Source: Anaerolineae bacterium
Lineage (GTDB): Bacteria > Chloroflexota > Anaerolineae > B4-G1 > SLSP01
DNA length: 64,000 nucleotides
Assembly: GCA_049975525.1 (NCBI GenBank)
Contig: JBNGCW010000001.1
Location: forward strand, 12,472 to 76,471
Reading direction: 5' to 3'
Shown one piece after another: positions 26,014 to 61,578 of this stretch. Numbering within the stretch: position 1 is the first letter of the stretch; each line of letters begins with the position of its first letter. Both the position numbers and the translations under genes were made by a program. The notes under the pieces are model-generated. The model ran no database searches. It was not told where the DNA came from and saw only the letters and a program-made list of their open reading frames with translations.

Positions 26014-26056
26014 CCGAACCTGCGAGGACTCTTTTTTGAGGAAAAGGGGGTGGATC

Positions 26057-29068: not shown

Positions 29069-30094
29069 ATGTCCAAGATCACCAATCCCCACGATCGGTT
29101 TTTCCGGGAGACGCTGGCGCGACCGGGTGCAGCGCGGGCGTTTCTGGAGCACTACCTGCCGGACAAAGTGCGGGCGGAGCTGGACGTGAGCGATCCCCAG
29201 TTAGAGCAGGATTCTTTTGTAGACACGGAGTTGCAAGCACACCGAGCGGATTTGCTGTATCGAGTAGGGCTGCGCCAGGGAGGAGGAGCGTACGTCTACG
29301 TGTTGTTCGAGCACAAGAGTGTGCCGGATCGCTGGGTGGCGTTCCAGCTGTTGAGGTACCTGGTGCGGATCTGGGAGCGAAACCTGCGGGAACGGGGAGA
29401 ATTGTGGCCGATCGTGCCGCTGGTCGTGTATCACGGGCAGGACGCCTGGTGGGTGGAGTTGAAATTTGGGGCGTTGTTGGAGATGCCGGGGGCGCTGCGG
29501 AGGTATACTCCGGACTACGAATATCTGTTGTGTGATCTGACGGAATATACGGACGATGCGCTGAAAGGCGAAGTGCTGTTACAGGTAGCGTTGCTGACGT
29601 TGAAGTATGTATTTCGACCGGAGTTGAATGAGCGCCTGCCGATATTGATGGCGTTACTGAGGGAGCTGGAGGCGCAACAGACGGGATTGGAGTACATAGA
29701 GACGGTGTTGCGGTATCTGACGCAGAGTGCGACCTACGTGGAGGTTGAGACGTTGAGAGAAGCGGTGGAGACCGCGTTTTCTGAGGAAGGGGAGGCACTG
29801 ATGTCTACCATAGCCCAGAAGTGGATAGAAGAGGGTTTGGAGCAGGGTCTAAAACAAGGATGGAAACAAGGACTGGAACAAGGACTGGAACAAGGACTGG
29901 AGCGGGGGAAGCGCGAGGGATTGCTGGCGGGGATCAGGTTAGGATTGAAATTGCGCTTCGGAAGCGAGGGGGTGCGGTTACTGCCGGAGATCGCCAAGAT
30001 TGAGGATGTGGACGTGCTGCAGGCCGTTCACGAGGCCTTGGAGACGGTGAACTCGCCGGAAGAACTGCGGACGCTATACTATCTCAATGCGTGA
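29069..30094 (+). CDS. Rpn-family recombination-promoting nuclease / putative transposase (PD-(D/E)XK, YhgA-like) with DUF4351-type C-terminus
   Basis: N-terminus MSKITNPHDRFFRE...YVLFEHKS...VVYHG is typical of Rpn/YhgA-like proteins. C-terminus has tandem GLEQGL(K/E)QG repeats encoded by a 12-nt repeat at ~29870-29905. Confidence 0.8.
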   Translation: MSKITNPHDRFFRETLARPGAARAFLEHYLPDKVRAELDVSDPQLEQDSFVDTELQAHRADLLYRVGLRQGGGAYVYVLFEHKSVPDRWVAFQLLRYLVRIWERNLRERGELWPIVPLVVYHGQDAWWVELKFGALLEMPGALRRYTPDYEYLLCDLTEYTDDALKGEVLLQVALLTLKYVFRPELNERLPILMALLRELEAQQTGLEYIETVLRYLTQSATYVEVETLREAVETAFSEEGEALMSTIAQKWIEEGLEQGLKQGWKQGLEQGLEQGLERGKREGLLAGIRLGLKLRFGSEGVRLLPEIAKIEDVDVLQAVHEALETVNSPEELRTLYYLNA

Positions 30095-36127: not shown

Positions 36128-36153
36128 AAGGTGAGGGGGAAGCCCGTCGGGCT
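36128..36153 (-). terminator. GC-rich hairpin terminator downstream of the giant GH13 gene
   Basis: gggggaagccc-tcgg-gggcttccccc, located 32 nt past the stop at 36185. Confidence 0.5.
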
Positions 36154-36184
36154 TCCCCCTTTGCATGTCTGAGGTTGACCGGCG

Positions 36185-39100
36185 CTAAGGGGTGCCGTTT
36201 TTGAAGATGAGGGGCATGTAGATGGTGTGGAGAGGTTCGATGGTGAAGGAGGCCATGGCACTATCTTGACCGTTGTTGAGGGACGTAACGTGGGCGGTGT
36301 TGGTGATGGTCACGCCGTGGAGCTCCCAGGCGCTGCCCACGGTGGCGGTGTAGACGATAGCGATGGGCTGCACGCCGGAGGGAAGGGCGCCGCTCCAGGT
36401 GATGGTGCCGGAGGCGTAGACGGGGGAGACGTTGGTGGCTGCTGTGAAGCCGCCGAAGGTGATCTCGGAAGGCAGGGTGTCGGTGAGGTGGACACCCATG
36501 GCTTCGGCTTCTCCGTTATTGACGAGGGTGAGGGTGTAGGTGACGACGTCACCCAGGGCGACGTTTGTTTCAGGCGTGACGGATTTGGTCAGATCGAGGG
36601 CCGGCGCGCCGACGACGGTGAAGGCGGTCTGCGCCTGTCCGCTGCCGGAGGTGTGACTGTAGGCGGCGGTGTTGGTGATGGTCGCGCCCCAGGTGTCCGC
36701 GTCGATGGTGGCAGGTAAGGTGAAGGAGTACAGACCATTGGCGGTGACGGTGATGACCTCGTCCAGGTCCATGCCGGTGACGCCGCTGGGCAGGGTGTCG
36801 GTGACGTGCACGTTGAGCGCGGGTGCGTAGCCCGTGTTACTAATCTGGATGGTGTAGGTAAGCGCGTCGCCGGGCTCCGGCGGATCTTGCTCGAGCGCAA
36901 CCTGCTTGTCGATGGCCAAATTGTGTTCGGCCCCGAAGGACCAGATATAATCCGAGCGCATCTCGGTGTCGTCGTAGTAGCCGGCCTTGAGCAGTGCGAT
37001 GGTGTAGCCGTGCGCTGGGTCGAGGGTGAGGGTGGGCGTGTAGAGGATCAGGGTGCCGGTGACGTTGACGGTGCCGTAGACGGGGTCGCTGTGCGTCTCC
37101 ACCGTCTGTGCAAAGCCGAACTCGCCATCAATGTGTGCGTGCCCGCCACCTTCCAGTTTGAAGGTGCTCGTGTTCACCCGGCTCGTGTCCAGTGGGCGGT
37201 TGAAGGTGACGGAGATGGGGCGGCTCACGGTCCAGGTGGCAGCATCGACGGCGGGATAGTGATCTATGACGATGGGGTCGCGCCAGTTGTGGACGGTGTC
37301 GGTGACGGTCATGACGCCGGTAGCGCCGTACTGCGCCGTCAGCTTGCGGTTGGTCAGCCCGACCAGGGTGCCCCAGTTCTCCACGGTCTCCCAGGAGCCG
37401 CGCGTGTACTTGTATTCCAGGTCGGTCCCGTCTGCGACGGTGGTCGTGTACACGTACTCGGTGGCGCTCAGCGGCGTGAGCGCTTGCCCACTGGCGTTCC
37501 AGGCGCTACCGAAGGCGTCGGCGTCGTTGCCCGCGATGTAGATGGTGTCGCCGAGGGGTGTGTAGTCCGGCACGGTGACGTGGAAGCGCAGCTCCACCAG
37601 ACGCGCTTCGGCGGTGGCCGAGGCTTCGTTGGAGGGGGTGGAGGCATTGAAGTTGCGGTCCAGCGCTCTGACGGTGTAGGTGTAGGTCTGACCCGTGGTC
37701 ACCGTGGTGTCGGTGTAGGCCGTCGTCGATGAGAGGACGCGACCCACTTTGACCGCCTCACCCGAGGTTTCGCCCTCCCCGTAGCGGAAGAGGTCGTAGG
37801 CGTAGAGGTCAGTGTCTGTCACGGCGTCCCAGGCCAGGCTGATGCTGCCCACGCTCCAATTGGTGACGCGGAGGTTCTGGGGTGTGGCCGGCGGTGTGGT
37901 GTCCGCAGCCGGTTGGACGTGGAGCAGGCCGGGGCTGATGACGTTGTCGGCGGAGATCACCCCGCTTTGGTCCGCGTAGGTCCAACTCCGCCCGTTGGTG
38001 GTGGTGTAGCGGTAGACGTAGTAGAACTCGCCGGTCTCTTCGGGCACTAGTTGCCCCTTGAATTCGTCGTTGTTACCAGCATCGGTGTTGAATTCTGCGT
38101 CAACCCACATGGTCCAGGAGATGGGCTGCGTGGTCGTCGGACCGAAGCCCACCTGCGCCGTCAACCCCGGCGTCGCCCCGCTATCGGAGGTTACGCCGTC
38201 GATCCAGACCTGACCGTAGATGTTTTCTGTAGGGGTGATGCCGATGGTGTGGGTGATTTCCGGGGGCCACTGCAGGTTGGCCCAGCCGATGGTGTCGTGA
38301 GGCATGCCGCTGGCCTCGTTGGAGGTGCCGCTTTTCAGCAATGTGGTGTCGTCTCGGCTGACGACGACGTAGTAGTAGGTGGTGGCGTTGGTCAGGCCGG
38401 TATCGGTGTAGACGGTGCTCGTGGTGGTGACCACAGGGGTGTAGCCGCCGCCGCTGACCTGGCTGCGGTAGAGGATGTAGCTGTCGGCGCCGGTGGCCGC
38501 GCTCCAGCCCAGCGTCAGCTCACCGCTGCCTTCGTTCGTCACGCTGAGGTCGGTAACGGCGTCCGGCGGCGTGTCCATGGTGCCGTTCAGCACCAGCACC
38601 GCGCCGCTCATGGCGGGCACGTCAGGGACGGTGATCTCGCCCGAGGTGGTGACGGTGTAGACCGCGCCACCGTCCAGCACGTCGATGAAGACGGTGCCCG
38701 CGCCCAGGTAGCCGGCGACGTCCACGGTGACGGTCTGTGATGTGCTACCGCTGTTGGCGATGATCACAGCCGCATCCGAATGATCGGCCTTCTTGCGCCC
38801 GTAAGCGTAGACCGCGTTGTCGTCGTCGACCAGCAGCGTCTCGAAGTCGCCGGTGCGCAGGGCCGGGTGATCGTTGCGGGCGTCGGTCAGCAGCTTGTAG
38901 TAATCCCGCAGGTCATCCTGAGTGGCCTGTGACTGCAGGTGGGTGTAGAAGGGGGTGCCGCTCTCGTCGAGCCAGGGGTAGGGGAGACGGTTGTAGGGAT
39001 CGTCCTCCCACTTGCCGCCGGCGTAGGTGGTTGGCCCGACCAGGCCGACCTCGTCGCCGTAGTAGGTGGTCGGCGCGCCGGGCAGCGTCATCTGCAGCAG

Positions 39101-42100
39101 CCAGACGCCCTTGAGGCGGGTGATGGCGTCGCTCCAGTCGTAGTTGGGATCGTCGAGCAGGGTGTCGTCGGTGCCGGTGGCGGCGTTGTGATCGAGCATG
39201 AAGAGGGCGCGGTTGGTGTCGTGGCTGCCCAGCAGGTTCATCATGGCGTAGAAGGCCTCCGGCGGATAGCGCTCCTCAAGGTAGTGCAGGCGCTCGTCGA
39301 GTTCGGAAGGCGTCAGCGGTTCGATGACGCCGGCGGAGCTGCTGGCGTTGTGGTCGTTGTCGGTGAAGGTGGAATCACGCCAAAAGCCCATAATGGCCGT
39401 GCCGAACTGGTAGTTCATGGAGGCGTCCCACTCCGGCGCGATAAGCCAGGGCGTGGAGTTGCCCCACTCCTCGCCGACGATGTAGGTGTCGCTGTAAACG
39501 TCGCGCACCGCGGCGCGGAAGCCCTCCCAGTAATCGTTGGTGGGATCGTTGGTGACGCCGGGGTCGACGTCGCCCGCCACGTCCAGGCGCCAGCCGTCGC
39601 CGCCCTGGGAGATCCAGTAGGGGGCGATGGAGGTCGTGCCGCTGGTCCAGACCATGGCGCGGACTTCGGCGTTGTCGGCCTTGAGCTTGGGCAGGCTATC
39701 GTAGCCGAACCAGCTCTCGTAGGTGGCGGCGTTGGGGGTGCCGTCGGAGCCGACGCACTCGCCGCTGCCCGGCGTCACGTCGGTGAAGTAGTACCAGTCG
39801 CGGTAGGGAGAGTCGGGACTCTCACAGGCGCCGCTCCCGTCGTTGATACCGGGACCGTCGGGGCTGGTCAAGTTGCCGTCGGCGTCGAAGCGCGAATAGC
39901 GGTCGAAGTAGATGCTGTCCGACGAGGTGTGGTTGAAGACACCATCGAGGATGACGTGCATGCCCCGGTTCGCCGCCTCGGTGGTCAGCGTGATGTAGGT
40001 GCTCAGGTCGCCGAAGTTGTCGTCGATGACGCCGAAGTCCGTCGTGTCGTACTTGTGGTTGGAGGGGGATTCGAAGATGGGATTGAGATAGAGCGCCGTC
40101 ACGCCGAGATCGTCCAGGTAGTCCAGCTTATCGATGATGCCCTGCAGATCGCCGCCGTAGAAGTTCTCCCCGTACTTGTTGGGGCAGTCGCCGTCGGTGT
40201 CGCGGGGGTCGCAGATGGGCGTATTCCAGTCGCTTCCCGTGGAGCGCACGATGGAGCCGTCGGGCAGATTGTAGTGGAAGGAGCCGGCGGGTGTGTTGTT
40301 GGTGGGATCGCCATCGCGGAAGCGATCGGTGAAGATCTGGTAGATGACGGCGTTCTTGACCCAATCGGGCGATTGGAAGGCGGGATTGTAGACGGTGATC
40401 TGCCAGCTGTTGTCCTGGCTTTCGTCGAAGGTCTGGCCAACGCCCATGGTGCGCTCGGCGTCGTCCTCATAGTAGTCGGTGTCCGTGCCGTCGATGGCGA
40501 TAAAGCGGTACCAGTGGAGGGTGGGATCGTCGCCGACCGGCACGTCCACCTCCCACCAATCGTAGGTGCCGTCACTGGAGACTACGCTCATGTCCAGGAG
40601 TTGCTGCGTGTCTTGGCGGTCGTCCCAGATGCGGACCTTGGCAGCGGTGAGGTCGTTGGCGAAGGCGCGCAGTCGCAGCGTGACGGTGGTGCCGGTGACG
40701 ACCGCGCCGACGGGCGAGCGGTAGAGGGGGTCGCGGGAGTCGTGGTAGAGGCCGTCCCACCAGACGTCATCATCTTGGGAAGCTGCTCCGGAGGGGATGT
40801 CAGGGATCGTGTAGGAGGCGTAGACCTTCTGCGTCGTTGCGTCATCCCAGCCGGTGGACTGATCGTCGCCGGGTACAGTGTCATAGGCGCCTTTTCCCCC
40901 GCCTCCTTGTGTGCCGAAGAATTCGAGGTCTACCGTGTCGCCGGCGCTCACCCCGATGTCGGCGAAGGGGATGGTCAGGCGCAGGCCCTCACCGTCGCTC
41001 CAGGCGACTTTGGAGTTGGGCTGCGAGGGGGAGCCGGTGTTACCGATGCCGCCCCAATCGATGCCACCGCCTGTGTCCCAGTTGCTGCCGTTCCAGGTGC
41101 GCAACTCCGTCCAGCCGTTGTCACTGCTGCTGTAGATATTACCCCGGATGTAGTAATCGGGTAGAAGCGTGTTGGTGGTCACGACGGGCGTGTAACCGAG
41201 GTTCTGCCAGGTAGTGGTATACGCCGCGGTGATGGCGTTGCCCCAAGGGTCGCCGGCCCCGCCGCCGCTCTTGGTGTTGATGGTCATACCGATCTGTCCA
41301 GTGGAGTTTGAGGTATCGTAATTCGGCATGGGAATGAACAAATGCAGGTTGGCATGGTCGGCCCAGACGTGCAGGCGGTGCACATCGGTCCAGGTGGTGC
41401 CGCTCCAGTCGGCTGGTCCCGGACTGGCGAGATCGCCCTCTGGATCGGTCGCCAAAGGCACGGAGACGAGTTGATACTGGGTGGTCGGGTCATCCCAGCC
41501 GGTGGATTGGCTGTCGCTGGGCACCGTGTCGTAGGTCCCTTTGCCGGTGCCACCCTGCGTGGCGAAGAATTGCAGGTGCACGTCGGACGGCGCGGGGTGG
41601 CCGAGGTCGGCTAAGGGGATGGAGAACTCGACGCCCTGCGTGTCGCTGTAGGCGACGTGGGTGCCGATTTGACCGCCACCGCTAATACCACCCCAGTTGG
41701 TGCCGCCGCCGGTCCACGTGCTACCGTCCCAGGCGCGCAGCTCTGTCCATCCCCCATCCTTAGGTACATTCCCGCGGATGACGTAGTCCGGTAGCATGGT
41801 CGCCGTGGTCTCTGTGCCGTCTACGTGATCGTAGCTGAAGGTGATGGCGTTGTCCCAGGGATCTGCACTATCCCCGCTGTTGGGCGCGGCGTCTATGTCC
41901 ATCACCAGCCCGATCTGCCCGGAAGAGACGGTGCTGGTGTACGAGGGCAGACTGGCGTAGACGTAGAGGGTGGTGGCGTCGGCTGCTACGTAGAGATCGG
42001 TTAAATCTGTCCAATGGGTGCCCTCCCACCCGGCGGGAGCCCCGAGGTCACCGGCCGGATCACTGGCGATTTTGACGTAATCGGTATCGAGGAGGCCATC

Positions 42101-42226
42101 TAGGGTGATGTTGGCCTCGTCGGCGAGCACGGGGTCTGGCGCCAGATCAGGGAAAAATTGTGGGTGGAGAAGGAGTCCAGAAAGAAGGGCTGTTAAAACA
42201 ACGAGCGTCAAGGTTTTCCTTCGCAT
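36185..42226 (-). CDS. giant secreted multidomain alpha-amylase/pullulanase-family (GH13) surface protein with DUF11/CARDB-type C-terminal repeats
   Basis: 2013 aa with signal peptide. Two duplicated ~300-aa N-terminal modules (DPxGDL...W.GT.WTD...), then a GH13 catalytic core (NAVIYQIFTDRF, GGDLQGIIDKLDYLDDLGVTALYLNPIF, HVILDGVFNH), then FN3/CBM-like domains and DUF11 repeats (DLTKSV...TYTLTLVNNG). Confidence 0.8.
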   Translation of the reverse strand: MRRKTLTLVVLTALLSGLLLHPQFFPDLAPDPVLADEANITLDGLLDTDYVKIASDPAGDLGAPAGWEGTHWTDLTDLYVAADATTLYVYASLPSYTSTVSSGQIGLVMDIDAAPNSGDSADPWDNAITFSYDHVDGTETTATMLPDYVIRGNVPKDGGWTELRAWDGSTWTGGGTNWGGISGGGQIGTHVAYSDTQGVEFSIPLADLGHPAPSDVHLQFFATQGGTGKGTYDTVPSDSQSTGWDDPTTQYQLVSVPLATDPEGDLASPGPADWSGTTWTDVHRLHVWADHANLHLFIPMPNYDTSNSTGQIGMTINTKSGGGAGDPWGNAITAAYTTTWQNLGYTPVVTTNTLLPDYYIRGNIYSSSDNGWTELRTWNGSNWDTGGGIDWGGIGNTGSPSQPNSKVAWSDGEGLRLTIPFADIGVSAGDTVDLEFFGTQGGGGKGAYDTVPGDDQSTGWDDATTQKVYASYTIPDIPSGAASQDDDVWWDGLYHDSRDPLYRSPVGAVVTGTTVTLRLRAFANDLTAAKVRIWDDRQDTQQLLDMSVVSSDGTYDWWEVDVPVGDDPTLHWYRFIAIDGTDTDYYEDDAERTMGVGQTFDESQDNSWQITVYNPAFQSPDWVKNAVIYQIFTDRFRDGDPTNNTPAGSFHYNLPDGSIVRSTGSDWNTPICDPRDTDGDCPNKYGENFYGGDLQGIIDKLDYLDDLGVTALYLNPIFESPSNHKYDTTDFGVIDDNFGDLSTYITLTTEAANRGMHVILDGVFNHTSSDSIYFDRYSRFDADGNLTSPDGPGINDGSGACESPDSPYRDWYYFTDVTPGSGECVGSDGTPNAATYESWFGYDSLPKLKADNAEVRAMVWTSGTTSIAPYWISQGGDGWRLDVAGDVDPGVTNDPTNDYWEGFRAAVRDVYSDTYIVGEEWGNSTPWLIAPEWDASMNYQFGTAIMGFWRDSTFTDNDHNASSSAGVIEPLTPSELDERLHYLEERYPPEAFYAMMNLLGSHDTNRALFMLDHNAATGTDDTLLDDPNYDWSDAITRLKGVWLLQMTLPGAPTTYYGDEVGLVGPTTYAGGKWEDDPYNRLPYPWLDESGTPFYTHLQSQATQDDLRDYYKLLTDARNDHPALRTGDFETLLVDDDNAVYAYGRKKADHSDAAVIIANSGSTSQTVTVDVAGYLGAGTVFIDVLDGGAVYTVTTSGEITVPDVPAMSGAVLVLNGTMDTPPDAVTDLSVTNEGSGELTLGWSAATGADSYILYRSQVSGGGYTPVVTTTSTVYTDTGLTNATTYYYVVVSRDDTTLLKSGTSNEASGMPHDTIGWANLQWPPEITHTIGITPTENIYGQVWIDGVTSDSGATPGLTAQVGFGPTTTQPISWTMWVDAEFNTDAGNNDEFKGQLVPEETGEFYYVYRYTTTNGRSWTYADQSGVISADNVISPGLLHVQPAADTTPPATPQNLRVTNWSVGSISLAWDAVTDTDLYAYDLFRYGEGETSGEAVKVGRVLSSTTAYTDTTVTTGQTYTYTVRALDRNFNASTPSNEASATAEARLVELRFHVTVPDYTPLGDTIYIAGNDADAFGSAWNASGQALTPLSATEYVYTTTVADGTDLEYKYTRGSWETVENWGTLVGLTNRKLTAQYGATGVMTVTDTVHNWRDPIVIDHYPAVDAATWTVSRPISVTFNRPLDTSRVNTSTFKLEGGGHAHIDGEFGFAQTVETHSDPVYGTVNVTGTLILYTPTLTLDPAHGYTIALLKAGYYDDTEMRSDYIWSFGAEHNLAIDKQVALEQDPPEPGDALTYTIQISNTGYAPALNVHVTDTLPSGVTGMDLDEVITVTANGLYSFTLPATIDADTWGATITNTAAYSHTSGSGQAQTAFTVVGAPALDLTKSVTPETNVALGDVVTYTLTLVNNGEAEAMGVHLTDTLPSEITFGGFTAATNVSPVYASGTITWSGALPSGVQPIAIVYTATVGSAWELHGVTITNTAHVTSLNNGQDSAMASFTIEPLHTIYMPLIFKNGTP

Positions 42227-43391: not shown

Positions 43392-44321
43392 TCAGGTCGC
43401 GTTTACGTCGACGACCTTGCCTTCTTGCGCCATGTGCGTCTTTGGGAAAACGGCCTGCGCTTTCTTCTCCATCTCGTCCAGGTACGCGTCGTCGTGGAGG
43501 GGACTATGGTGGGTGAGGATCAGACGTCCGACCTGCGCCGCTTGTGCCACGTCCGTCGCCATGCGCCAGGTGCTATGTCCCCAGCCCTGCTTGACCACCG
43601 TCCCATCGGCATATTCGTGTTCGTCGTATTCGGCGTCATGGATGAGTAGGTCGGCGTGGCGTGCGAAGCGGATGAGGCGCCGGTCGCCGCCGATGTAGCC
43701 CTCCACGTCGGTGGCAAAGACGAAACTGCGGCCCTGATAAGCGACCCGGAAAACCAAAACGCCGTGTTGGGGGTGGGCGTAGCTGTGGTGTGTGTCGATC
43801 ACCACATTTTCCGGCGCAATCTCAGCCTTTTTATCTGAGGCTTCGACGTGGCGGGGCGGTTTCTCCGCGTCGCTGAGGATGACCCTGGCCCCATGGGTGA
43901 TGTGGGTGAAGGTCCGCTTGCTCAGGATGTCTTGCTGGCTGATCGGGGAGAGGGGAGGGCGCATGATGCGCTGTAACGTCTCCTCCAGATTCTCCCCGCT
44001 GATGGGCTCAGGTCCGAAAACGTACAGTCGACAGTGAGGACACAGCGCCGGTTGGAAGAGGGGGAGGCCCTGGATGTGGTCGTTGTGGACGTGGGTGAGC
44101 AGCAGCGGCAGATTGATAGGTTGTCCCGTAGCGTGCTGGGCTGCCATGATCTCTTGTCCCAGGCCGATGAGGCCGGTACCCCCGTCGATGATAAAGAAGT
44201 GTGGGCCGGCGTGCACCTCCAGGCAAGTTGTGTTGCCGCCATATTTGACGGTGGTAGGACCGGGGGTGGCGTAACCACCGCGTACGCCTCGAAATTTGAT
44301 CCAGAACTCGTCCCCTTGCAT
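43392..44321 (-). CDS. MBL-fold metallo-hydrolase
   Basis: HxHxDH motif THVHNDHIQG and downstream His/Asp ligands. Start ATG 44321 with AAGGAG RBS. Confidence 0.75.
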   Translation of the reverse strand: MQGDEFWIKFRGVRGGYATPGPTTVKYGGNTTCLEVHAGPHFFIIDGGTGLIGLGQEIMAAQHATGQPINLPLLLTHVHNDHIQGLPLFQPALCPHCRLYVFGPEPISGENLEETLQRIMRPPLSPISQQDILSKRTFTHITHGARVILSDAEKPPRHVEASDKKAEIAPENVVIDTHHSYAHPQHGVLVFRVAYQGRSFVFATDVEGYIGGDRRLIRFARHADLLIHDAEYDEHEYADGTVVKQGWGHSTWRMATDVAQAAQVGRLILTHHSPLHDDAYLDEMEKKAQAVFPKTHMAQEGKVVDVNAT

Positions 44322-44470
44322 GGCGCTCCTTTGTTGTGTGCCGCCCGCTGCTATGGCATTTTCACACCATCTTATGCTTACCCTCTCGTTTGTCAAATGG
44401 ACGATATCTTTTCGCCGGCCCTGCGGAGGCCCCGAGGGTTTTGGCCTCACGGTCGGTGCGCACGACCCTA

Positions 44471-44501
44471 CCTACCGGGGAGGGGCCCCCTCCCCGGTAG
44501 G
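44471..44501 (-). terminator. 31-nt GC-rich perfect palindrome downstream of the cyclase-peptidase operon
   Basis: cctaccggggagggg c cccctccccggtagg, 7 nt past the stop at 44508. Confidence 0.45.
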
Positions 44502-44507
44502 AGGAGA

Positions 44508-47500
44508 TTACTGTCGGAATACCAGCGGCAAGTACAGCGTCGGCAACTCGATGTTCAGATACTCGCCTTTGGCTGTGGCCAGTGTCACGTTCCCGGCGGC
44601 GTCCACCGCCTGGATGAAATAGCCGATGTTGAACCACGATGAGCTGCTGGTCTCGCCGATCCAGCGCTCGCCGGTGACGTCGTTGGGATCACGCTCCAAG
44701 GGGAGGCTCCAGATGCGCGTGGGGGAAAGGAAGGTGGCGTAGACGGCTGCCACTTCACCCTCGCCGTCCAGGGCCTCGGCGGCGATGTGCAGCTGCTGAC
44801 CATCTACCGTGGCGACGGCGTTGCTTACAGAAGGTGGACCGTAGTCGGTCTCGTCAGCGGTGAGGAGGACGCCCACTTTCATCTTGTCGATGAGCCGCAG
44901 CTCCGCAGTGGGCGCGTTGAAGAGGGCGAAGGTAGCAACCAGCTGCGGTGTCTCTCCTGCCCGGTTGACGACGAGAGGATGGGTGGGTATCCAGCCCAGG
45001 TCGGGATTCAACGCGGGCTCGGGCTGGGCCGTGTCGGTGACGGGACGGGTGATGACGGGATCGAAGTCGGGATAGGCGGTGAGCGTCGCGGTGAGCAGCA
45101 GAGAGCCGTGAGGGATCGCGTTCCCGCTCTCGATTGCGAAGGAAGCCGTCGGCAGGAGCGGGCGACCGGTGGCGCCGTGCGCCCCGCCGTTCGCGGTGTA
45201 ATACACGCCATGGGCGCCGTCATGTCGTTCCAGCGTCGGCTCCAGCACATGCATCGTTATCTGTTGTGGGCTGACCCGCGGTTCGGTGAGGGGGCGCAGA
45301 GGCGTTTCTGGGGCTGTCTGAACGGTCACCGGCGTGTCGATTTCGTACATGGGCAGGCCGTAGAGCGTGGCCTCCATGATGGACTTGGCGTCGTAGGGGG
45401 TCAGGCCGCCGGCCGGAAGACTGTGCAGGTAGCGTACCTTGGCCCGGCGCAGCGCCTCGCCGACGGCCATGCGGTCCGCTTCGCCCAGCGCCTGGGTGAA
45501 GAGCGTCATCAGCTGCTCGGAGCCGGCGATACCGTCGTCGGTTCCGTAGCCGTAGCCCGTGTTGGCGATCCAGACGGCCCCCTGTTGTGCCAGCGCTTGC
45601 GGGAAGTCCGGCTTGGTTTGACTTAGGCTGGCGTCGCCGTCGGGCACGCTGTACCCGGCGTGACAGCCCATGGACCACGCAACGGTGCCGCTGAGCGCAG
45701 CGGTGGCGTTGACGATGTGCGTGTTGTAGAACGTTGTGCTGGTGTCCGCCGGTTGGAGCCGCCAGTGTTCGAAGTGCGCGTTGATGGATGCCAGATCCGG
45801 TGCCTCGGTCGCGCGGTTGGGCCAGGCGTTGATCAGCTGATCGGCGGTCCAACTCTCACTGATGAGGCTGTCGTCGACCTGGGCGGCGCCGTGGGTAGCG
45901 CCCAGATCCTCTGCGATCTGTCGTGCTGCGTCACTGAGGAAGTCGTAGCCGGTGACCAGGGCGTCCTGCGATGTTAACGTGGGCTGTGACAAGAACTGCT
46001 CGATCATGTCCGCGATCTCCGCCGGCGCCTCCACCAGCCGCCCCGTGGCGAGCAGCGGTCGCCAGAAATAGTGCCCGCGCCAGCCCAGTTCCTGACCCGG
46101 CGGCGTGCCGTAGGCGTCGTCGGTGAGGTAGAAGCCGCCTTGGGTGGCGGAGCGCAACGCGCCGGGCAGCGTCGCCGAGCCGTGAGTGTACTCGCGTTCG
46201 TTGGCGATGATCGCGTGATCCGGTTGTCGATACATGGGAATCTGAGCGTCGTCGCCGACCACGACAACGTATTGGATAGTATTGAACTGGGACAGTGTGG
46301 GAGAAATGATCTGGGTGCGAATGGCTTGGACGACGTTGTTAGCCATCTGAGGATCGCAGTAGTTTTCGTTCCAGATTTGATAGGTGGCCGCCACTTCCGA
46401 GTTAAACTCGACGGGATAGAGCAGACCTTGTGTCGCCTCGGCCAGCTCTTCGAGGCGGGAGGAGAGAGCGCCTATCTCGGTGTAAGTTCCGATCATGCGG
46501 GCGGGGTTGTAGAGGATCAGGGTCTGGGGGGTTGCACTACCCCAGTAGGGGGTGTGCGAAGTGGAGGTATAAGGTAGGTGTGTACACACCTCACCGGGGA
46601 TGGGTGTGGCTCGCGTGGAGAGCGTATACGGTGAGGGGGAGTAAGTCTCATCTTCCGTACCTACCACGAGAATGTAGTAAATACCGGCCTTATCGGCGGT
46701 CAGCTGCACCTGTTCCCCTTCGGTGTCCGCGTTGGCAGAGGTGGCCCACCAGCCTCGGGTCGCCCACCAGCCGCGCGTGGCCCACCAGCCTCGGGTCGCC
46801 CACCAGCCGCGTGTGGCCCACCAGCCGCGCGTAGCCCACCAGCCCCGGATGCTCTCCACGCTGGCATCCTCGGCTGTTTCGGCGCCGTCGTCCAGAGCTC
46901 CGAGATCCCGGCCGGGCGCGAGGGCGGGTAGGAGAGAAGGATCCGGCAGCACCAGCAAGTCGTAGTCGGCAGGTAAGTCTTCCAACGTCACGGTGAGCAC
47001 GGAAGGGGAGATGACCTCGACGGCGTACCAGTCGATGTCGCCCGGCTGCCCGATGGTGGCCGTCAGCTCGACATTGAGGTCAATGGGTGCGGCGGTATCG
47101 GGAGAGTCGTTGGGTTCGTAGTCATCCGTTATGGGCTCGCTTGAAGGCGCGAACCCTCGCTCGTGGCCCACCACCAGAATCTCACCCTCGGCGCTGATCT
47201 CACCCGTGCCATCGAAGGTTCCAAGCTCCGACATTTGTTTCTGATCCCACTCCAGACTGGCGTGAGGGGCGATATGACGTTGGGTATAGAAGACGGGAAC
47301 CCCGCCCGCATCGAAAAGCGTCAATGTGACCGTGACGGTCTCCGAGTTGGGATTGTGAACCCAGTAGCTCGTGGCATGCGTGCTGTGTCGATGAACGGCG
47401 GGTAAGTAGACAGGGCTCCCCGAGGCATAAGAGGGAGATAAGAGATAGCCGTCCACGTCGCCGCCTGCGGTGGCGTCGGTTGGCCTGTCGAGCACCAGAC

Positions 47501-48581
47501 CTCCATTGAGCCAATCTTCTGGGCTGATTTTAGCGCTTGCCCAACCGATTTCGGAGGGAGGAGGGGCCTTTTCGGGCTTGTTCCGGAAGAGCGTGAAGGA
47601 AAGATTGTCAATAGTGCTTCCATCGCCACTGTGATAGTAGTTGAGGGAGACGGATGTCTGTGTGACGACTTTCTGAGTCAACCAGATTTCACTTTGATAA
47701 TCCGCCGTGTTGACAACGCGCGGCACTTGCAGGTTGGAAAAACTCTCCGAAGCCATCTGGGCGGGCCAGGCTTCAGCCTGCGCACCGTTCTCGTCCACCA
47801 GTGCCATGTACCCCATCAGGGAGGCTGTGCCGTTGCGGGTCTGGATCATCCCCTTTTGTCCGGTGACGAGTCCGTCTACTTCGGGATTGTAGACAACGAC
47901 TCCGTAGGGCGGCACGGTGATAGAGCGGGTCACGGGACCGTCGCCTTCGATGTAGAGCTCCAGATCAAAAGTGGCTGAGATCGAGTCAGGGCTGTGGAAA
48001 TAGATTTCCGGGTGCAGGTTCGGAGTTCCTCCCACCCAGGGGAAGAACAGGTTGTAAGTGTAGAACTCCGAGGAGGGAGGCGTGTAGGCCATCAGATAGT
48101 CGGGGGAACCGTCACCGGGTGTACTCTTGACCAGACAGACGAGGGTGCCCATATTATAACTTTCCAGATAAGCCGTGCCTGTCACCATGTCGACGGGTAG
48201 ATGGGGGGCGAGCATTTCTGGCCCCAGGATAAGACTTCCCCGCGGGGGAAGAGTGTAGGTGAAAACGGTGGCGTCTGACCACTGGCCTCCGTTGGGGCCC
48301 CAGAAGTGAAAGCGGATCTCGTTGTCGAAACTTGCCGTGTTCATCACGTGAAGGGTGGTGGGGACTTTGTCTGTTTCGATAGAGAAGTAAGGAATATGGC
48401 AGTCTGTGTACCCGTAGTAGCTACTGGGAGGCACAAATGAGGTGATACCGTCGTTGGGAGGGATGGTGGTTTCGGTAGGAGATTTGGCAAGGGCAGACAC
48501 GGCGCCCCGGTAGAACAAGAAGAGCAACGCGACGCTTATCACAACGATAACAAGGGTTTTGAAAGCCGTTTTTTGCGTCAT
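44508..48581 (-). CDS. giant secreted protein with PPC (pre-peptidase C-terminal) domain, (RGWWAT)6 repeat and clan-CD cysteine-peptidase (gingipain/C25-like) domain
   Basis: N-terminal signal/TM MTQKTAFKTLVIVVISVALLF. PPC motif EPNDSPDTAAPIDL...GDIDWYAVEV...LPADYDLLVL. Candidate His...Cys dyad (NAHFEHW ...~40 aa... SMGCHAGY). Start ATG 48581 with AAGGAGAG RBS, 19 nt after the upstream gene. Confidence 0.55.
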   Translation of the reverse strand: MTQKTAFKTLVIVVISVALLFLFYRGAVSALAKSPTETTIPPNDGITSFVPPSSYYGYTDCHIPYFSIETDKVPTTLHVMNTASFDNEIRFHFWGPNGGQWSDATVFTYTLPPRGSLILGPEMLAPHLPVDMVTGTAYLESYNMGTLVCLVKSTPGDGSPDYLMAYTPPSSEFYTYNLFFPWVGGTPNLHPEIYFHSPDSISATFDLELYIEGDGPVTRSITVPPYGVVVYNPEVDGLVTGQKGMIQTRNGTASLMGYMALVDENGAQAEAWPAQMASESFSNLQVPRVVNTADYQSEIWLTQKVVTQTSVSLNYYHSGDGSTIDNLSFTLFRNKPEKAPPPSEIGWASAKISPEDWLNGGLVLDRPTDATAGGDVDGYLLSPSYASGSPVYLPAVHRHSTHATSYWVHNPNSETVTVTLTLFDAGGVPVFYTQRHIAPHASLEWDQKQMSELGTFDGTGEISAEGEILVVGHERGFAPSSEPITDDYEPNDSPDTAAPIDLNVELTATIGQPGDIDWYAVEVISPSVLTVTLEDLPADYDLLVLPDPSLLPALAPGRDLGALDDGAETAEDASVESIRGWWATRGWWATRGWWATRGWWATRGWWATRGWWATSANADTEGEQVQLTADKAGIYYILVVGTEDETYSPSPYTLSTRATPIPGEVCTHLPYTSTSHTPYWGSATPQTLILYNPARMIGTYTEIGALSSRLEELAEATQGLLYPVEFNSEVAATYQIWNENYCDPQMANNVVQAIRTQIISPTLSQFNTIQYVVVVGDDAQIPMYRQPDHAIIANEREYTHGSATLPGALRSATQGGFYLTDDAYGTPPGQELGWRGHYFWRPLLATGRLVEAPAEIADMIEQFLSQPTLTSQDALVTGYDFLSDAARQIAEDLGATHGAAQVDDSLISESWTADQLINAWPNRATEAPDLASINAHFEHWRLQPADTSTTFYNTHIVNATAALSGTVAWSMGCHAGYSVPDGDASLSQTKPDFPQALAQQGAVWIANTGYGYGTDDGIAGSEQLMTLFTQALGEADRMAVGEALRRAKVRYLHSLPAGGLTPYDAKSIMEATLYGLPMYEIDTPVTVQTAPETPLRPLTEPRVSPQQITMHVLEPTLERHDGAHGVYYTANGGAHGATGRPLLPTASFAIESGNAIPHGSLLLTATLTAYPDFDPVITRPVTDTAQPEPALNPDLGWIPTHPLVVNRAGETPQLVATFALFNAPTAELRLIDKMKVGVLLTADETDYGPPSVSNAVATVDGQQLHIAAEALDGEGEVAAVYATFLSPTRIWSLPLERDPNDVTGERWIGETSSSSWFNIGYFIQAVDAAGNVTLATAKGEYLNIELPTLYLPLVFRQ
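46744..46851 (-). repeat. six tandem 18-nt units encoding (RGWWAT)x6 inside the peptidase gene
   Basis: Plus-strand units gcccaccagccNcgNgtN repeated six times. Wobble positions vary while the amino acids are conserved. Confidence 0.8.
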
Positions 48582-48600
48582 GGGATCTCTCCTTATCGAG

Positions 48601-51600
48601 TTATGTTTTTTGACTGTGAGAACTTCCTGTCCACTGCCGATATAGTCGGTTGACCGTATCCAGATCACCGGACGCCCCCAGTCGCTCGAAGGCAGCGCGC
48701 GCCTCTGCAAGACGTTGAAGCCCCCGCGAAGGGCTGTCACACTGGTGGAGATAGCGCGCTTCTATCAACCGCAGGTGGGCTCTCTCATAAGGATCCTGAG
48801 CGCTATCGGTGACGCTCCTGGCCTGATGGAGTGCGGTCTCTGCAGCGGGGCAGTTGTCAAGCGCAAGGTGAATCTCCACCCTGAGTCGTTGAAGGGGGCC
48901 GTTTTCCTGCGTGGCGCCCTGATCCGCTACGATCTGGAGGGCTTGTTCACATTGTTTCAATGCTTGAGTTGTGTTTCCTGTTTTGTGGGCCAACGCGGCG
49001 TGAAGATAATAGATATCGGGCAGAAGCGTTCCCGAGCCTAAAGCGTGGGAAAGGGACTCGGCCTGCGTCAGATGTTCTCTGGCCTCCTCCCAGTTTTTTT
49101 CTTGGAGGGCAATAGCGGCCAAGTTGATTTCCATGACGGCCTCCCCGAAGGTGATCCCCCGATCCCGGGCGATTTTCAAGGCGCGTTGATAGGCCTGACG
49201 GGCGGCGTCAAATTTCCCTTGATAGCGGTAGACCTCGCCCAGGTTGGCTGCGACCCGCGCTTCGCCTTCCACGTAGTGGATGCGCCGGGCAAGCATCAGC
49301 GCTTGCTCGCCGTGCTCAACCGCCTGATCCCACCGTCCCAAATTCAAGTGCACCAGCAGCAGATTTGTGCGGGCGTTGACTTCACCCATCAGATCGTGAA
49401 GCTCGCGGTAGATAGCCAGACTCTCCTCACTGAGCGAGCGAGCCACCTCCAGGTGTCCCTGTTGGTATTCCAGGGGGGCCAGAGCGTAAAGGGCTTGCGC
49501 CTGCACGCGGCGCGCCTCGATTCCGCCGATCCCTCTGGCGACCTCAATCGCGCGGTTGTTCCAGAGCTTGCCTTGCTCATAATGACCCTGCTTATAAAAG
49601 AGCGAGCTGCCACGAAGGTACAGACGGGCACCCTCTAAGGTCTCTTTGACGTGGGGCAGGGCCAACCCCCGTTCCACAGCTTGAAAAGCTTCCTTGATCT
49701 CCCCCTGTGTCTCCAAAGTCGAAGCGATGTGGTATTCAAGGTGGGCCAGTTCTTCGATCTCTGCGGTGGTGACGGAAGGGGAGAGCAAGTGGTGCGCCTG
49801 TTGAAGGTGCTGGAGAGCTTCAGGATACTGTCCCTGGATGGTCAGGGTCTCGCCCAGGAGGTGATGAGCTTCTGTTCGGAGACGCATGTCTTCGATCTGA
49901 CCGGCTTTCAACGCTTGGAGGACCCGCCGGAAAGCCTGGGCGGCCTGTTCCATCAAGTAGTTTTCCAAAGCCCGGTGTCCCAGATCCAGGTTGGCTCGAA
50001 CGGCAATTGGCCATTGCTGTCCTTCAAAAGCGTGATGGGCCAGCAGCGCCAGCCAATTCGACGTGGCGTGCTCTCGTTGCTCGTCGAGGTACGCGGAGAG
50101 ACGGCGGTGGATCTGTCGGCGGATGCGGTAGGGCAGGCCGCGCCGGGCCACCTCGCGGACCAGCGGCTGCTGGAAGATCAGCGTTTCGTGTCCGGGATCG
50201 CCGTAGACCAACCCCATGGGGCTCAGGCTTGCCAGACGCTGCTCCACGATGGAACGAGGCTCTTCCCCGTATCCCTCCACCAGCATGGACATCGTCATCT
50301 GCTCACCGACGATGGTGGCGGCGCGCAACAGGTGGCGGCTGGGGGGCTCCAGCTGGTCGATGCGGCTTTGGATCAGACCGTAGGTGGTCTCAGGCAGCGG
50401 TGCCTCTTCCAAAGGACGCGTGAGGGCCCAGCCTTGTTCCTCGCGTTTCAGCAGGCCGGCCGCGCGCAGGGCGCGCACGGCCTCGATGGCGAAGAGTGGC
50501 TGTCCTTCTCCCCGGCGGAGGATCCAGCGCTTGACCTCCAGGGGCAGGGTGTGGGTACCGGCTGCGTACTGTGCCAGAGCGCTCATGGCCTGATCCGAGA
50601 GGGGAGGGAGGTGCAGGTCCACTGCTTTGGCCGGTGGCTGCCACCTCGCAAGAAACGCGTCCTCGTCCCTATAGGTGACGATGAGCAGGAAACGCCCCGT
50701 CGGAGGTTCGTGTAGCAGGCTTTCCACGAGGCGCAGAGAAGGGGCCGGCATCCAGTGGGCGTTTTCCAACACCAACATCAGCGGCTGGTGTGCGGCATGG
50801 GCCGTAAGCAGGTCGCGCAGCACGGCCTGACGTTGGGCTTCGCGTAGCTCCGGCGAGAGTGCCTCCACCTCCGGTGAAGGTTCGATGTCAAGACCTACCA
50901 GCGGGGCCAACAACGCCGCCCACATCTCTTGCTCCTGTTGGGCCAAGACCTCGCGTAGGATGGTGGGGTGCGCCTTGGACGGAAAGTCGTCCAGTCGGAG
51001 CAGATCGCGGAGAGGGCGTTCCCAGGCGGCGTAGGGTAAGTGTCCGCCGTAGGAGGGCGCCGTGCCCGCATAGGTGACAAACCCATCGGCGCGGGCCTCC
51101 TCGTTAAAGCTGCGCACGAGTCGGCTCTTGCCGCTGCCGGCTGCGCCATGCAACAACACCACGCCCGCCTCCCCCACCAGGGTCCTCTGCAGCGCTTCCC
51201 TAAACCTTTTCAGCGTGGCGAGGCGACCGACTAAAGGTAACGACTCCAACTCCTCGCCGGCGAAGAGCCTGCGCACGCCTTGAGCGAGGTAAGGGGTGAT
51301 GAGCTCCCGTTTGCCTTTGAGGTGTTGAGCGGGGGCCGGTTGGACCTCCACCCGCCGACTGACGCTGCTGTGCTGGGCGGTGTGCGGTCCCAACCAGACC
51401 TCCCCGGGTTCGCAGCGGTTCATCAGACGATAGGCCAGGTTGACGGCGTCGCCCATCACCGTGTACTCCCGGCGTGCATCGGTGCCCACATCGCCGGCAA
51501 AGACAAAGCCCGTGTTGATGCCCACTTGGAGCGGTACGTCGATGCGCTCTTGCAGTTCCAGCGCGGCCATCACGGCGCGCAGTGGATCGTCCTCATGCGC

Positions 51601-52728
51601 CTGGGGTGCGCCGAAAAGCGCCATCAGATAGGCGTCCTCGGGGCCGATGCCGATCTTGTTGACCGTCCCGTCGTAGGTACGGATGATGTCGCGGATCTGG
51701 ACGAAGAGGGCGTTGGATTGTGCCACCGTCCCCTCCAGCTGTTGGGGCGACTCACGGTGCACGGTGAAGTCCGGCAGGGCGGCGAGGGCGATCATCAAAA
51801 TGGTGACGTGGCGGTGCTCGCTCCACAGCCGAAAACGATCCAGCGCCGTAAGCGCGGTGAGGCGCTTCAGGAGCTCGGGGGCCAGATAGGGGGAGAGTGC
51901 GTCCAGCCGCGTCAGCAGCCACTGCGTCTGCTCCGGGGCGGAGAGCCCTTCGGGAAGCTGGGGCAGGGGAGCGGTTTGGGGTTCCACGTCCAGTGGCTGA
52001 TGCGGGGAGACCAGGAACAGCTCAGGCTCTTCCAGGGGGGTGCAATGAGCGATTTCGGTAGCGCATTGATGGGTGGAGGCGTGCAGTACGACGCCGCCGG
52101 GCGGCGCGGCCTGCTGCGCTCGCCCCATCTGCTGCAGTGGTGTCCCGGTCAGCAACCAGTTGCGGTGATCGGGCGTGCCCAACCCCACGCCGATCAGCTC
52201 GCCGCTGGAGACGCCGATGGCGATGCGGAAGGGGAAAGGACCCAGCGACGTCTCGACCTCGTCCATGGCCTGCATGGCGCGCTGCGTCTCCAGCGCAGCG
52301 GCGATGGCGCGTTGAGCGTGCTGGGTTCCCGTGAAGAGCAGCAGGCCGGCGTCGCCGCCGAACTTATGGAGATCTCCGCCGTAAGGCAGAGCCGCTTCAA
52401 TCAACAGGTGCAAAAAGCGGTTGACCAGCTCCGTCACCTCTTCGGCGCCGCTCTGTGATTCGTCCTGAGAAAAACGTTCGGTCAGCGCCGTGAACCCGTC
52501 GATGTCGGCAAAGACGACTGTCCCCTCCAGCGGGAGGATAATGGGGGTCGTTACCGGACGCTTCAGTAAATGCTGGGTCAGACCCTGGGGGAGATACGTG
52601 GTGACGGTATCCAGCAGATGTTTAAGCCGTTGAGGCAGCTGGGGAGTATAGCGCAGAATCCTCTTCAGCCACGCCGGGTGAGTGGAGGTCGGCTCGCTCT
52701 CCGTGGTCGGCTCTTTGAAGGTTGACAT
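48601..52728 (-). CDS. signal-transduction protein: two tandem class-III nucleotidyl-cyclase domains, STAND/AAA+ P-loop NTPase, C-terminal TPR array
   Basis: Cyclase domain 1 (VVFADIDGFTAL...KFGGDAGLL) and domain 2 (GIGPEDAYLMALFG...MGDAVNLAYRLMN). Walker A GAAGSGKSRL; about 450 aa of TPR repeats. Start ATG 52728 with GGGAGA RBS. Confidence 0.8.
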   Translation of the reverse strand: MSTFKEPTTESEPTSTHPAWLKRILRYTPQLPQRLKHLLDTVTTYLPQGLTQHLLKRPVTTPIILPLEGTVVFADIDGFTALTERFSQDESQSGAEEVTELVNRFLHLLIEAALPYGGDLHKFGGDAGLLLFTGTQHAQRAIAAALETQRAMQAMDEVETSLGPFPFRIAIGVSSGELIGVGLGTPDHRNWLLTGTPLQQMGRAQQAAPPGGVVLHASTHQCATEIAHCTPLEEPELFLVSPHQPLDVEPQTAPLPQLPEGLSAPEQTQWLLTRLDALSPYLAPELLKRLTALTALDRFRLWSEHRHVTILMIALAALPDFTVHRESPQQLEGTVAQSNALFVQIRDIIRTYDGTVNKIGIGPEDAYLMALFGAPQAHEDDPLRAVMAALELQERIDVPLQVGINTGFVFAGDVGTDARREYTVMGDAVNLAYRLMNRCEPGEVWLGPHTAQHSSVSRRVEVQPAPAQHLKGKRELITPYLAQGVRRLFAGEELESLPLVGRLATLKRFREALQRTLVGEAGVVLLHGAAGSGKSRLVRSFNEEARADGFVTYAGTAPSYGGHLPYAAWERPLRDLLRLDDFPSKAHPTILREVLAQQEQEMWAALLAPLVGLDIEPSPEVEALSPELREAQRQAVLRDLLTAHAAHQPLMLVLENAHWMPAPSLRLVESLLHEPPTGRFLLIVTYRDEDAFLARWQPPAKAVDLHLPPLSDQAMSALAQYAAGTHTLPLEVKRWILRRGEGQPLFAIEAVRALRAAGLLKREEQGWALTRPLEEAPLPETTYGLIQSRIDQLEPPSRHLLRAATIVGEQMTMSMLVEGYGEEPRSIVEQRLASLSPMGLVYGDPGHETLIFQQPLVREVARRGLPYRIRRQIHRRLSAYLDEQREHATSNWLALLAHHAFEGQQWPIAVRANLDLGHRALENYLMEQAAQAFRRVLQALKAGQIEDMRLRTEAHHLLGETLTIQGQYPEALQHLQQAHHLLSPSVTTAEIEELAHLEYHIASTLETQGEIKEAFQAVERGLALPHVKETLEGARLYLRGSSLFYKQGHYEQGKLWNNRAIEVARGIGGIEARRVQAQALYALAPLEYQQGHLEVARSLSEESLAIYRELHDLMGEVNARTNLLLVHLNLGRWDQAVEHGEQALMLARRIHYVEGEARVAANLGEVYRYQGKFDAARQAYQRALKIARDRGITFGEAVMEINLAAIALQEKNWEEAREHLTQAESLSHALGSGTLLPDIYYLHAALAHKTGNTTQALKQCEQALQIVADQGATQENGPLQRLRVEIHLALDNCPAAETALHQARSVTDSAQDPYERAHLRLIEARYLHQCDSPSRGLQRLAEARAAFERLGASGDLDTVNRLYRQWTGSSHSQKT

Positions 52729-53040
52729 TTTTCTCCCATTGTGCTTTTATGCCGGCTTCTCGGAGGTGAATGACTGTGTGAGATCATCCCCATGATCAGC
52801 GTAAGGGTGAGAAGGGCACGGTGAGAAGTGTGGGGCCCCTTTCCTTACGTCCTATTGTAACGGATGCCGCCGGAAAAGCCAATTCGTGCGGCATTCAGGA
52901 TTTCGAAACGAATCCGCACCGTAGAAACTGCGTAAACGAAAGCAAGGTAAACGAAGATGGGGTTGATGCGGGAAGGCAACATGATGGGGGAAGCCGCCCA
53001 GGGCGGTTGAGCCACCCTGGAACTGCTTCGTTTGCCCCCT

Positions 53041-61490: not shown

Positions 61491-61562
61491 GCGGGCGTAG
61501 TTCAGTGGTAGAACGTCAGCTTCCCAAGCTGAATGTCGCGGGTTCGAGTCCCGCCGCCCGCT
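61491..61562 (+). tRNA. tRNA-Gly (anticodon CCC)
   Basis: Cloverleaf: acceptor gcgggcg/cgcccgc, D arm gttc-agtggta-gaac, anticodon stem tcagc/gctga with loop ttCCCaa, T arm gcggg-ttcgagt-cccgc, discriminator T. CCA is not encoded. Confidence 0.9.
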
Positions 61563-61578
61563 CTGAGGTATCAAAAAA

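Follow-up and report, generated by a model that had tools for sequence, protein, structure and literature searches.

The analysis reported here concerns two adjacent genes in a 64,000-nucleotide (nt) stretch of contig JBNGCW010000001.1 from an Anaerolineae bacterium (assembly GCA_049975525.1), hereafter the window, to which all coordinates refer. Chloroflexota are mostly filamentous and mostly uncultured bacteria, abundant in wastewater sludge, sediments and hot springs. The first gene is predicted to encode a cytoplasmic protein of the soluble adenylyl cyclase (sAC) type and the second an exported multidomain protein of the gingipain family; together they form a conserved two-gene module of Chloroflexota, which is inherited and arranged as a unit. 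The layout of the locus is as follows.

48601 to 52728, minus strand: gene 1, predicted cytoplasmic C1-C2 cyclase, STAND NTPase and TPR protein of the sAC type, 1375 amino acids (aa)
48582 to 48600, minus strand: intergenic spacer of 19 nt with the ribosome-binding site AAGGAG at 48589-48594
44508 to 48581, minus strand: gene 2, predicted exported multidomain gingipain-family (C25-like) protein, 1357 aa

According to the analysis of open reading frames (ORFs), gene 1 starts with ATG and stops with TAA at 48601-48603. The mechanical ORF list extends gene 2 to GTG at 48740, but the supported start is ATG 48581, since AAGGAG lies upstream of it and the orthologues begin at the same Met. The 19-nt gap with a ribosome-binding site, reported in a preceding sequence-only reading of this DNA, thus stands.

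Conservation of the pair was surveyed in a scan holding one genome per species, which yielded at least 564 peptidase relatives; neighbourhoods were taken from the best 80 loci, almost all of them belonging to Chloroflexota. The survey had been set beforehand as the test on which the proposed pairing could fail, and the pair survives it. Adjacency was counted in 36 species-level loci whose flanks reach 4.5 kb or more on each side, and in 33 of them a STAND gene lies within 500 nt of the peptidase gene (27 times upstream on the same strand, three times downstream on the same strand and three times on the opposite strand). Cyclase domains are carried by 44 of 45 adjacent STAND partners, and non-adjacent STAND matches amount to only 5 in 857 kb of flank. 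The gap between cyclase stop and peptidase start is estimated at a median of 54 nt, two pairs having 4-nt overlaps. In distant branches the order is reversed, a gene intervenes, or cyclase, AAA_16 and TPR parts occur as separate genes, and the neighbourhood persists, adjacency being held down to about 27-33% identity while all other flanking genes change. The two proteins also diverge in parallel, as measured by pairwise identities in 41 pairs (Mantel r 0.90, a value reached in 0 of 2000 permutations). As to a third conserved gene beside the pair, only generic histidine kinases were met (13 loci). Viewed from the cyclase side, five out of five TPR-bearing homologues examined (30-68% identity) adjoin a peptidase gene, while neither of two TPR-less paralogues does. 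These paralogues (loci L084, 7001-14877, and L085, 7001-14890), of about 1095 aa, share roughly 50% identity in the cyclase and NTPase portions and precede genes for a PP2C phosphatase, a LysM protein and an FHA-containing Ser/Thr kinase, and this different conserved cluster implies that different members of the cyclase family have different dedicated partners. Since the pairing tracks the TPR-bearing subfamily, specificity for the partner would seem to lie in the TPR region of the protein.

The domains of the gene 1 product are distributed over its reading frame in the following way.

52066 to 52545, minus strand: cyclase domain 1 (C1-like), residues 62-221, keeping the metal-binding Asp75 and Asp126 as well as Lys122, transition-state Asn absent
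51286 to 51816, minus strand: cyclase domain 2 (C2-like), residues 305-481, metal-binding Asps lost, Lys358, Thr423, Asn430 and Arg434 kept
50680 to 51237, minus strand: STAND (AAA_16) NTPase core, residues 498-683, Pfam AAA_16, E 7.4e-23
48739 to 49881, minus strand: TPR/MalT-like sensor repeats, residues about 950-1330, TPR_12 E 3e-24, TPR_MalT E 1.2e-16

The Pfam assignments (two Guanylate_cyc stretches, AAA_16, TPR_12 and TPR_MalT) agree with the tandem cyclase-STAND-TPR architecture suggested from the letters alone. An NCBI entry from a metagenome-assembled genome of Anaerolineae matches the protein at 100% identity, and more than 100 near full-length relatives show 29-68% identity. Among 72 orthologues both metal-binding Asps of cyclase domain 1 are present in 100% of sequences and no conserved Asn is found there, while domain 2 has lost the Asps and keeps Lys, Thr, Asn and Arg almost without exception. 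By this partition of residues the two domains are predicted to complement each other in one active site, that is, to form a pseudo-heterodimer with Asps supplied by domain 1 and Lys/Thr/Asn/Arg by domain 2; the Lys/Thr pair, judging from what is known of sAC and cyanobacterial CyaC, points to ATP as the probable substrate. The NTPase core appears equally well preserved: Walker A at residues 528-535 (GxxGxGK[ST]) is kept in 71-72 of the 72 orthologues (G528 in 71), Walker B (hhhhE655) in 67 and W659 in all 72. No transmembrane-like segment is seen in 40 of 44 cyclase partner proteins from related loci.

The closest solved structure by sequence is the catalytic core of human ADCY10, found by phmmer in the PDB with E 1.4e-26 across both cyclase domains. 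Its D47, K95, D99 and R176 align with D75, K122, D126 and R203 of gene 1, and its K334, T405, N412 and R416 with K358, T423, N430 and R434. Two of these residues of the human enzyme, Lys95 and Arg176, we take from sAC crystal-structure work to be the bicarbonate-binding ones; both counterparts, K122 and R203, are present in gene 1, and among the 72 orthologues Lys is found in 68 and Arg in 36. The sequence comparison with ADCY10 covers the catalytic core, and the STAND-TPR half is likened by architecture and by the position of the P-loop, which occupies residues 516-523 in human sAC (PMC3475452) and 528-535 in gene 1. Human sAC has TPR-like motifs beyond the P-loop (PMC3475452), and the C-terminal region of full-length sAC (sACfl) is described as a STAND domain (PMC12802110). 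Since the C1-C2 tandem, the Walker motifs, the P-loop position and the TPR-like repeats agree, the gene 1 product is most aptly called a bacterial protein of the sACfl type. With ADCY10/sACfl and bacterial sAC-like cyclases it shares the tandem C1-C2 class III domains and the same split of catalytic residues. It departs from sAC in the variability of the Arg aligned with the bicarbonate site and in its protease partner, of which there is no mention in the sAC papers PMC12802110, PMC3475452 and PMC11006738.

This placement replaces the comparison with the actinobacterial cyclase-AAA-HTH (helix-turn-helix) group, to which the sequence-only reading had pointed: the ADCY10 type is closer in both the C1-C2 tandem and the P-loop position. 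In mycobacterial proteins of the Rv0386 type a class III cyclase is joined to an NTPase of the AAA_16 type, but the cyclase domain is single and a LuxR-type HTH is present, whereas gene 1 encodes two complementary cyclase domains and TPR and has no HTH. Likewise the TOMM kinase/cyclase fusion model TIGR03903 scores 174 bits against a cut-off of 705.75, the match being confined to residues 304-1273; the cyclase-STAND-TPR backbone is common to both, and gene 1, having no kinase domain, falls outside that family.

For the gene 2 product the following features were delimited.

48483 to 48581, minus strand: N-terminal signal peptide or signal anchor, residues 1-33, read from the sequence as MTQKTAFK, 15 hydrophobic residues and ...SALA/K
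46596 to 47150, minus strand: candidate domain of the pre-peptidase C-terminal (PPC) type with an intervening loop, residues 478-662
46740 to 46848, minus strand: six tandem TRGWWA units with an 18-nt period in the PPC loop (Tandem Repeats Finder, 6.1 copies)
45327 to 46529, minus strand: predicted gingipain-fold (clan CD, C25-like) catalytic domain, residues about 685-1085
44547 to 45269, minus strand: C-terminal beta-sandwich (immunoglobulin-like) domains, residues about 1105-1345, from secondary structure of the model
44511 to 44537, minus strand: C-terminal tail LYLPLVFRQ

Of 62 peptidase relatives whose N-terminus is intact, 54 show the same export feature, in keeping with the secreted location proposed earlier for this protein. 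The catalytic domain escapes direct detection: no match to Peptidase_C25 (PF01364) was obtained on the gene 2 protein with Pfam/NCBIfam even at E up to 10, and sequence and profile searches of the PDB returned nothing for it. Within the family, Pfam Peptidase_C25 matches 13 of 43 members at E up to 0.01 (best 1.5e-12), and many members carry a precomputed PF01364 label. AlphaFold gave an unusable model from the single sequence, with a predicted local distance difference test score (pLDDT) of 31.7, and from an alignment of 43 sequences a model with pLDDT 91.8 and a predicted template modelling score (pTM) of 0.92. The latter displays the caspase-hemoglobinase alpha/beta fold of gingipain type, in which H936 (codon at 45774-45776) follows strand 276-278 and C973 (codon at 45663-45665) follows strand 313-315 in model numbering. 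Their motifs, N934-x-H936 and G972-C973-H974-x-G976, are about 97% conserved in 123 family representatives, where losses of H936 and C973 are few and affect both positions; acidic and Gly-rich motifs make up the other family-wide conserved positions. In 85 genomic relatives both His936 and Cys973 are retained throughout, whereas His939 varies, so that the dyad, which was to be verified by alignment, is present without exception in this set. An association between dead peptidases and cyclase-less partners, an idea prompted by P0001, finds no example among these relatives, only one of which adjoins a partner without cyclase domains. Because of the predicted fold, the conserved dyad and the Pfam matches in homologues, the clan-CD peptidase call made at the outset is retained, although not on a C25 match of the sequence itself. 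The gene 2 product is thus predicted to be a multidomain cysteine peptidase that is exported by Sec, adopts the gingipain (C25, clan CD) fold and retains both residues of the His/Cys dyad.

The remaining parts of the protein are characterized unevenly. The PPC call of the sequence-only reading could be upheld in part: the native sequence scores 17.2 bits, which is below threshold, while after in silico excision of the 66-residue repeat loop a full-length match approaches the cut-off (25.1 against 25.9 bits, E 3.4e-5), and PF04151 (PPC) is present in several homologues. The loop is a repeat hot spot differing between relatives in copy number and sequence, as orthologues have in the same place GGWWAT repeated six times or GGWASI repeated eight times. 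Repeats of the PPC loop elsewhere among relatives (L002, L003, L082, L087 and P0002 examined) also include GMISAI, PLRSI and PISSI. The C-terminal beta-sandwich region is conserved across the family, and residues 34-477 received no confident family assignment. An exhaustive search with residues 655-1357 retrieved 2602 cluster representatives, of which 1366 have E values of 1e-30 or lower, the conserved module spanning about 680 residues within proteins of 650 to more than 3000 aa. The view of this family as rare, to which a word-indexed search returning two relatives and not the query, though the neighbouring gene 1 was recovered from the collection at 100% identity, had given rise, was abandoned in the face of these numbers; repeat-rich sequence saturating the candidates, or a gene left uncalled in the source assembly, may account for the shortfall.

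The gingipains RgpB and Kgp of Porphyromonas gingivalis (MEROPS C25, clan CD) resemble the gene 2 product in the His-then-Cys dyad with each residue placed after a beta-strand, in the immunoglobulin-like domain after the catalytic one and in being exported multidomain proteins. Sequence identity to them is 14-17%, with no Pfam C25 match; the short YLPLVFRQ tail stands in place of the type IX secretion C-terminal domain, for which no Pfam/NCBIfam match was found in the gene 2 protein; PPC and beta-rich N-terminal domains are added, and the host belongs to Chloroflexota. TPR-CHAT (Craspase) and CHAT proteins also combine TPR and protease, but in one cytoplasmic polypeptide, whereas here these are separate proteins in different compartments, and the fold of gene 2 is much closer to that of gingipains.

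The boundaries of the transcription unit are marked by three elements.

52999 to 53021, minus strand: hairpin closely following the PfkB kinase gene upstream, where the preceding transcription unit probably ends
52854 to 52882, minus strand: promoter-like -35/-10 pair, TTGGCT, 17 nt, TACAAT (consensus scan, 9 of 12 matches)
44471 to 44501, minus strand: perfect palindrome 7 nt past the gene 2 stop, likely end of the transcription unit (inverted-repeat search, folding)

The palindrome has 15-nt arms with 100% complementarity and represents a unique and the strongest inverted repeat of the window; as RNA it forms a 14-bp stem, and an 81-nt stretch around it folds at -40.6 kcal/mol (z -2.7). Its designation as terminator-like holds as far as the inverted repeat is concerned, but it has no U-tract, is omitted by the consensus terminator scan and does not fit the pattern of a classical intrinsic terminator. 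A hairpin with a stem of at least 9 bp is found 3' of the peptidase gene in 53 of 76 relatives versus 32 of 85 control windows placed inside genes. The 61-nt stretch with the hairpin after the upstream gene, named PfkB by Pfam, folds at -32.6 kcal/mol (z -2.5). The promoter-like pair lies 126 nt upstream of the cyclase start codon in a region with 4 such sites versus 1.6 expected, which is weak evidence for its being a promoter. Taken together, the PfkB hairpin and the promoter-like site upstream and the palindrome downstream delimit a two-gene unit, and the pair is probably co-transcribed. With Rfam no RNA element was recognised in the operon or its surroundings. A CRP-type site preceding the operon (52777-52792, two mismatches) was considered and rejected, such sites being unenriched in the window. 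A 13-nt perfect inverted repeat also occurs at 36134-36160, directly 3' of the stop of a 2013-aa amylase gene; like those at 44471-44501 and 52999-53021 it is GC-rich, devoid of a U-tract and located at a gene end of this genome. Neighbours of the pair in the window are genes of sugar metabolism or sugar use and housekeeping genes, with no defence island. The peptidase gene is adjoined by a metallo-beta-lactamase-fold gene (Lactamase_B_2, 43392-44450, minus strand), which is also met at a distant locus (L001, 8875-9723) and, with only five loci overall, probably reflects residual synteny.

Both proteins belong to known kinds; their strict and ancient coupling was not found in the literature searched, in agreement with the earlier statement that such a pairing had not been described. 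As the best explanation of the locus as a whole we tentatively propose, granting it somewhat less than an even chance, a two-gene module coupled through cyclic AMP (cAMP), in which an sAC-type cytoplasmic sensor is combined with an exported protease of gingipain fold. A functional link between cyclase and protease, in line with the second-messenger control suggested in the sequence-only reading, is inferred, and its most likely form would be a cAMP-producing cytoplasmic sensor dedicated to the surface protease. The TPR sensor would bind a ligand, and nucleotide-driven switching of the STAND core would turn on cAMP synthesis, whereupon cAMP would govern how the protease is produced or used. By analogy with MalT and maltotriose, the cue would most likely be a peptide or another product of the extracellular activity of the protease, and bicarbonate acting at the degenerate cyclase site may be a second input. 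MalT and related STAND transcription regulators share with gene 1 the AAA_16 core and the MalT-like TPR sensor, and gene 1 likewise has beside it the gene of a hydrolase acting outside the cell, the products of which could be sensed, whereas the output of gene 1 is a pair of cyclase domains and not a DNA-binding domain. Such a loop, based on product sensing or feedback, is favoured since the pairing goes with the TPR-bearing subfamily.

Several observations weigh against this explanation. The proteins reside in different compartments and so could contact each other directly only before export. No gene for a cAMP receptor lies consistently near the pair, and CRP-like sites are not enriched in the window (14 found, 18.5 expected). 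The Arg aligned with the bicarbonate site of sAC is kept in only half of the orthologues (36 of 72). Some members of the peptidase family, such as that of the actinobacterial Motilibacter and several proteins longer than 2000 aa, have no adjacent partner, and a part of the co-divergence would be expected from shared vertical descent alone.

The sharpest competitor is the assumption that the catalytic core itself, like that of mammalian and Chloroflexus soluble-type cyclases with bicarbonate, responds to CO2, bicarbonate or pH and thereby ties exoprotease output to inorganic carbon or pH, with the TPR-STAND half acting only as a scaffold or autoinhibitor and taking no part in sensing protease products. 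We consider it unlikely. The alignment of K122 and R203 with sAC Lys95 and Arg176, whose bicarbonate role was assumed above, speaks in its favour, as does a Chloroflexus cyclase reported to be activated by bicarbonate (cited in PMC11006738); the loss of R203 in half of the orthologues and the fact that TPR-less paralogues with the same cyclase core are not paired with the peptidase gene argue against it.

TPR domains commonly bind C-terminal peptides. This property would be used if the pair were an export or sorting unit, in which the gingipain-like enzyme acts as a sorting transpeptidase for the C-terminal YLPLVxR tail in the manner of PorU or the glycosylphosphatidylinositol (GPI) transamidase, and the cytoplasmic TPR recognises the tail or pre-protein before export and reports its load via cAMP. 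PorU, the C25-family sortase of type IX secretion, acts on C-terminal signals of exported proteins and has a C25-family fold; like PorU, gene 2 bears the same C-terminal tag as its possible substrates, and PorU, legumain-type ligases and the GPI transamidase are among the fold matches. The tail is carried by three signal-peptide proteins of the window and by most family members, at the true C-terminus: it was found in 47 of 59 proteins with a terminal module versus 1 of 73 after an internal module. Nevertheless, the idea is weakened by the wider distribution of the C25-like family, and a sorting activity of the protease, suggested only by the tail, seems quite improbable.

Still another option is an anti-phage or conflict system, where TPR would detect an invader protein, STAND would fire the cyclase signal and the peptidase would serve as effector. 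STAND-TPR sensors and cyclase signalling are common in defence, and the cyclase domains resemble Pycsar cyclases (E 1e-13). The closest thematic precedent is the work on multicellular bacteria whose conflict systems use cyclases and caspase-like peptidases as alternative effectors that can replace one another (PMC7159879); the systems described there are cytoplasmic, however, with no mention of C25 or secreted partners. The peptidase studied here is exported and has surface-protein domains, the neighbours are housekeeping and sugar-use genes in conserved synteny, and the pair is passed on vertically in the manner of core genes. PADLOC gives only generic similarity to PycC cyclase and TPR and no system-specific model. 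Since export signals, core-gene behaviour and the lack of a PADLOC system match coincide, a defence role for the pair is unlikely, and the complete scheme with the peptidase as effector is very improbable. Inherited synteny of functionally unrelated neighbours, as might be supposed from close relatives that also share unrelated flanks (an F420 oxidoreductase and the metallo-beta-lactamase-fold gene, for example), is scarcely credible given that adjacency outlasts the other flanking genes down to about 27-33% identity, that the link survives three gene orders and a split partner, and that stray STAND genes are so rare.

In terms of significance, the proposed cAMP-coupled module touches on the regulatory half of sAC. 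Human sAC has more than 1100 residues beyond its catalytic core without known function. The role of the sACfl regulatory region in mammals is still unknown (PMC12802110, PMC3475452), and a biochemical study of 2025 found no regulator specific for full-length sAC and considered that a binding partner or metabolite might be missing (PMC12802110). Proteins of the same layout in bacteria, together with a dedicated partner gene, offer a tractable system for finding what STAND-TPR senses. A more general proposition, which we regard as unlikely, is that sAC-type enzymes use their TPR-STAND half to receive a peptide or protein signal connected with an exported protease dedicated to them; this signal could arise by proteolysis or be a terminal segment of the precursor of the protease. 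Were this true, the bacterial pair would reveal for the first time a class of ligand and a partner for the regulatory region of sACfl; a link that is regulatory only in the usual way would make the result a useful annotation but no new principle. Apart from this, a large Chloroflexota family of gingipain-fold surface proteases is defined (2602 cluster representatives), which Pfam detects only partly, and its association with cyclases suggests that the family may be under second-messenger control.

The C-terminal tail deserves a separate description. In the window the form [IL]Y[LM]P[LI][VI]x[RK] followed by 0-5 residues, with no transmembrane helix after it, terminates three proteins with signal peptides: the C25-like protein (LYLPLVFRQ, 44511-44537, minus strand), a glycoside-hydrolase-like/CBM_4_9 protein (LYLPIVLRKG, gene at 25970-28150, plus strand) and the 2013-aa alpha-amylase/DUF11 protein (IYMPLIFKNGTP, gene at 36185-42226, minus strand). 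In the literature searched nothing relevant was found on this motif or on a C-terminal sorting signal of Chloroflexota. The YLPLVxR-type tail looks like a hitherto undescribed signal of Anaerolineae for C-terminal sorting or anchoring. Distant C25-like members end differently, with ...LGCPLN, ...KYFGKTC[TV], ...MPDxG...Y[VL][IL]x or a transmembrane helix and an Arg-rich tail (seen in P0130, P0138, P0142, P0146, P0148, P0147, P0176, P0197, P0201, P0222 and P0234), and this variety suggests lineage-specific signals of surface attachment. Elsewhere in the window, an ORF with a YhgA-like Transposase_31 (PD-(D/E)XK) domain lies amid metabolic genes at 29009-30094 on the plus strand, and tRNA-Gly (CCC) at 61491-61563, also on the plus strand, is the sole match of Rfam and ARAGORN.

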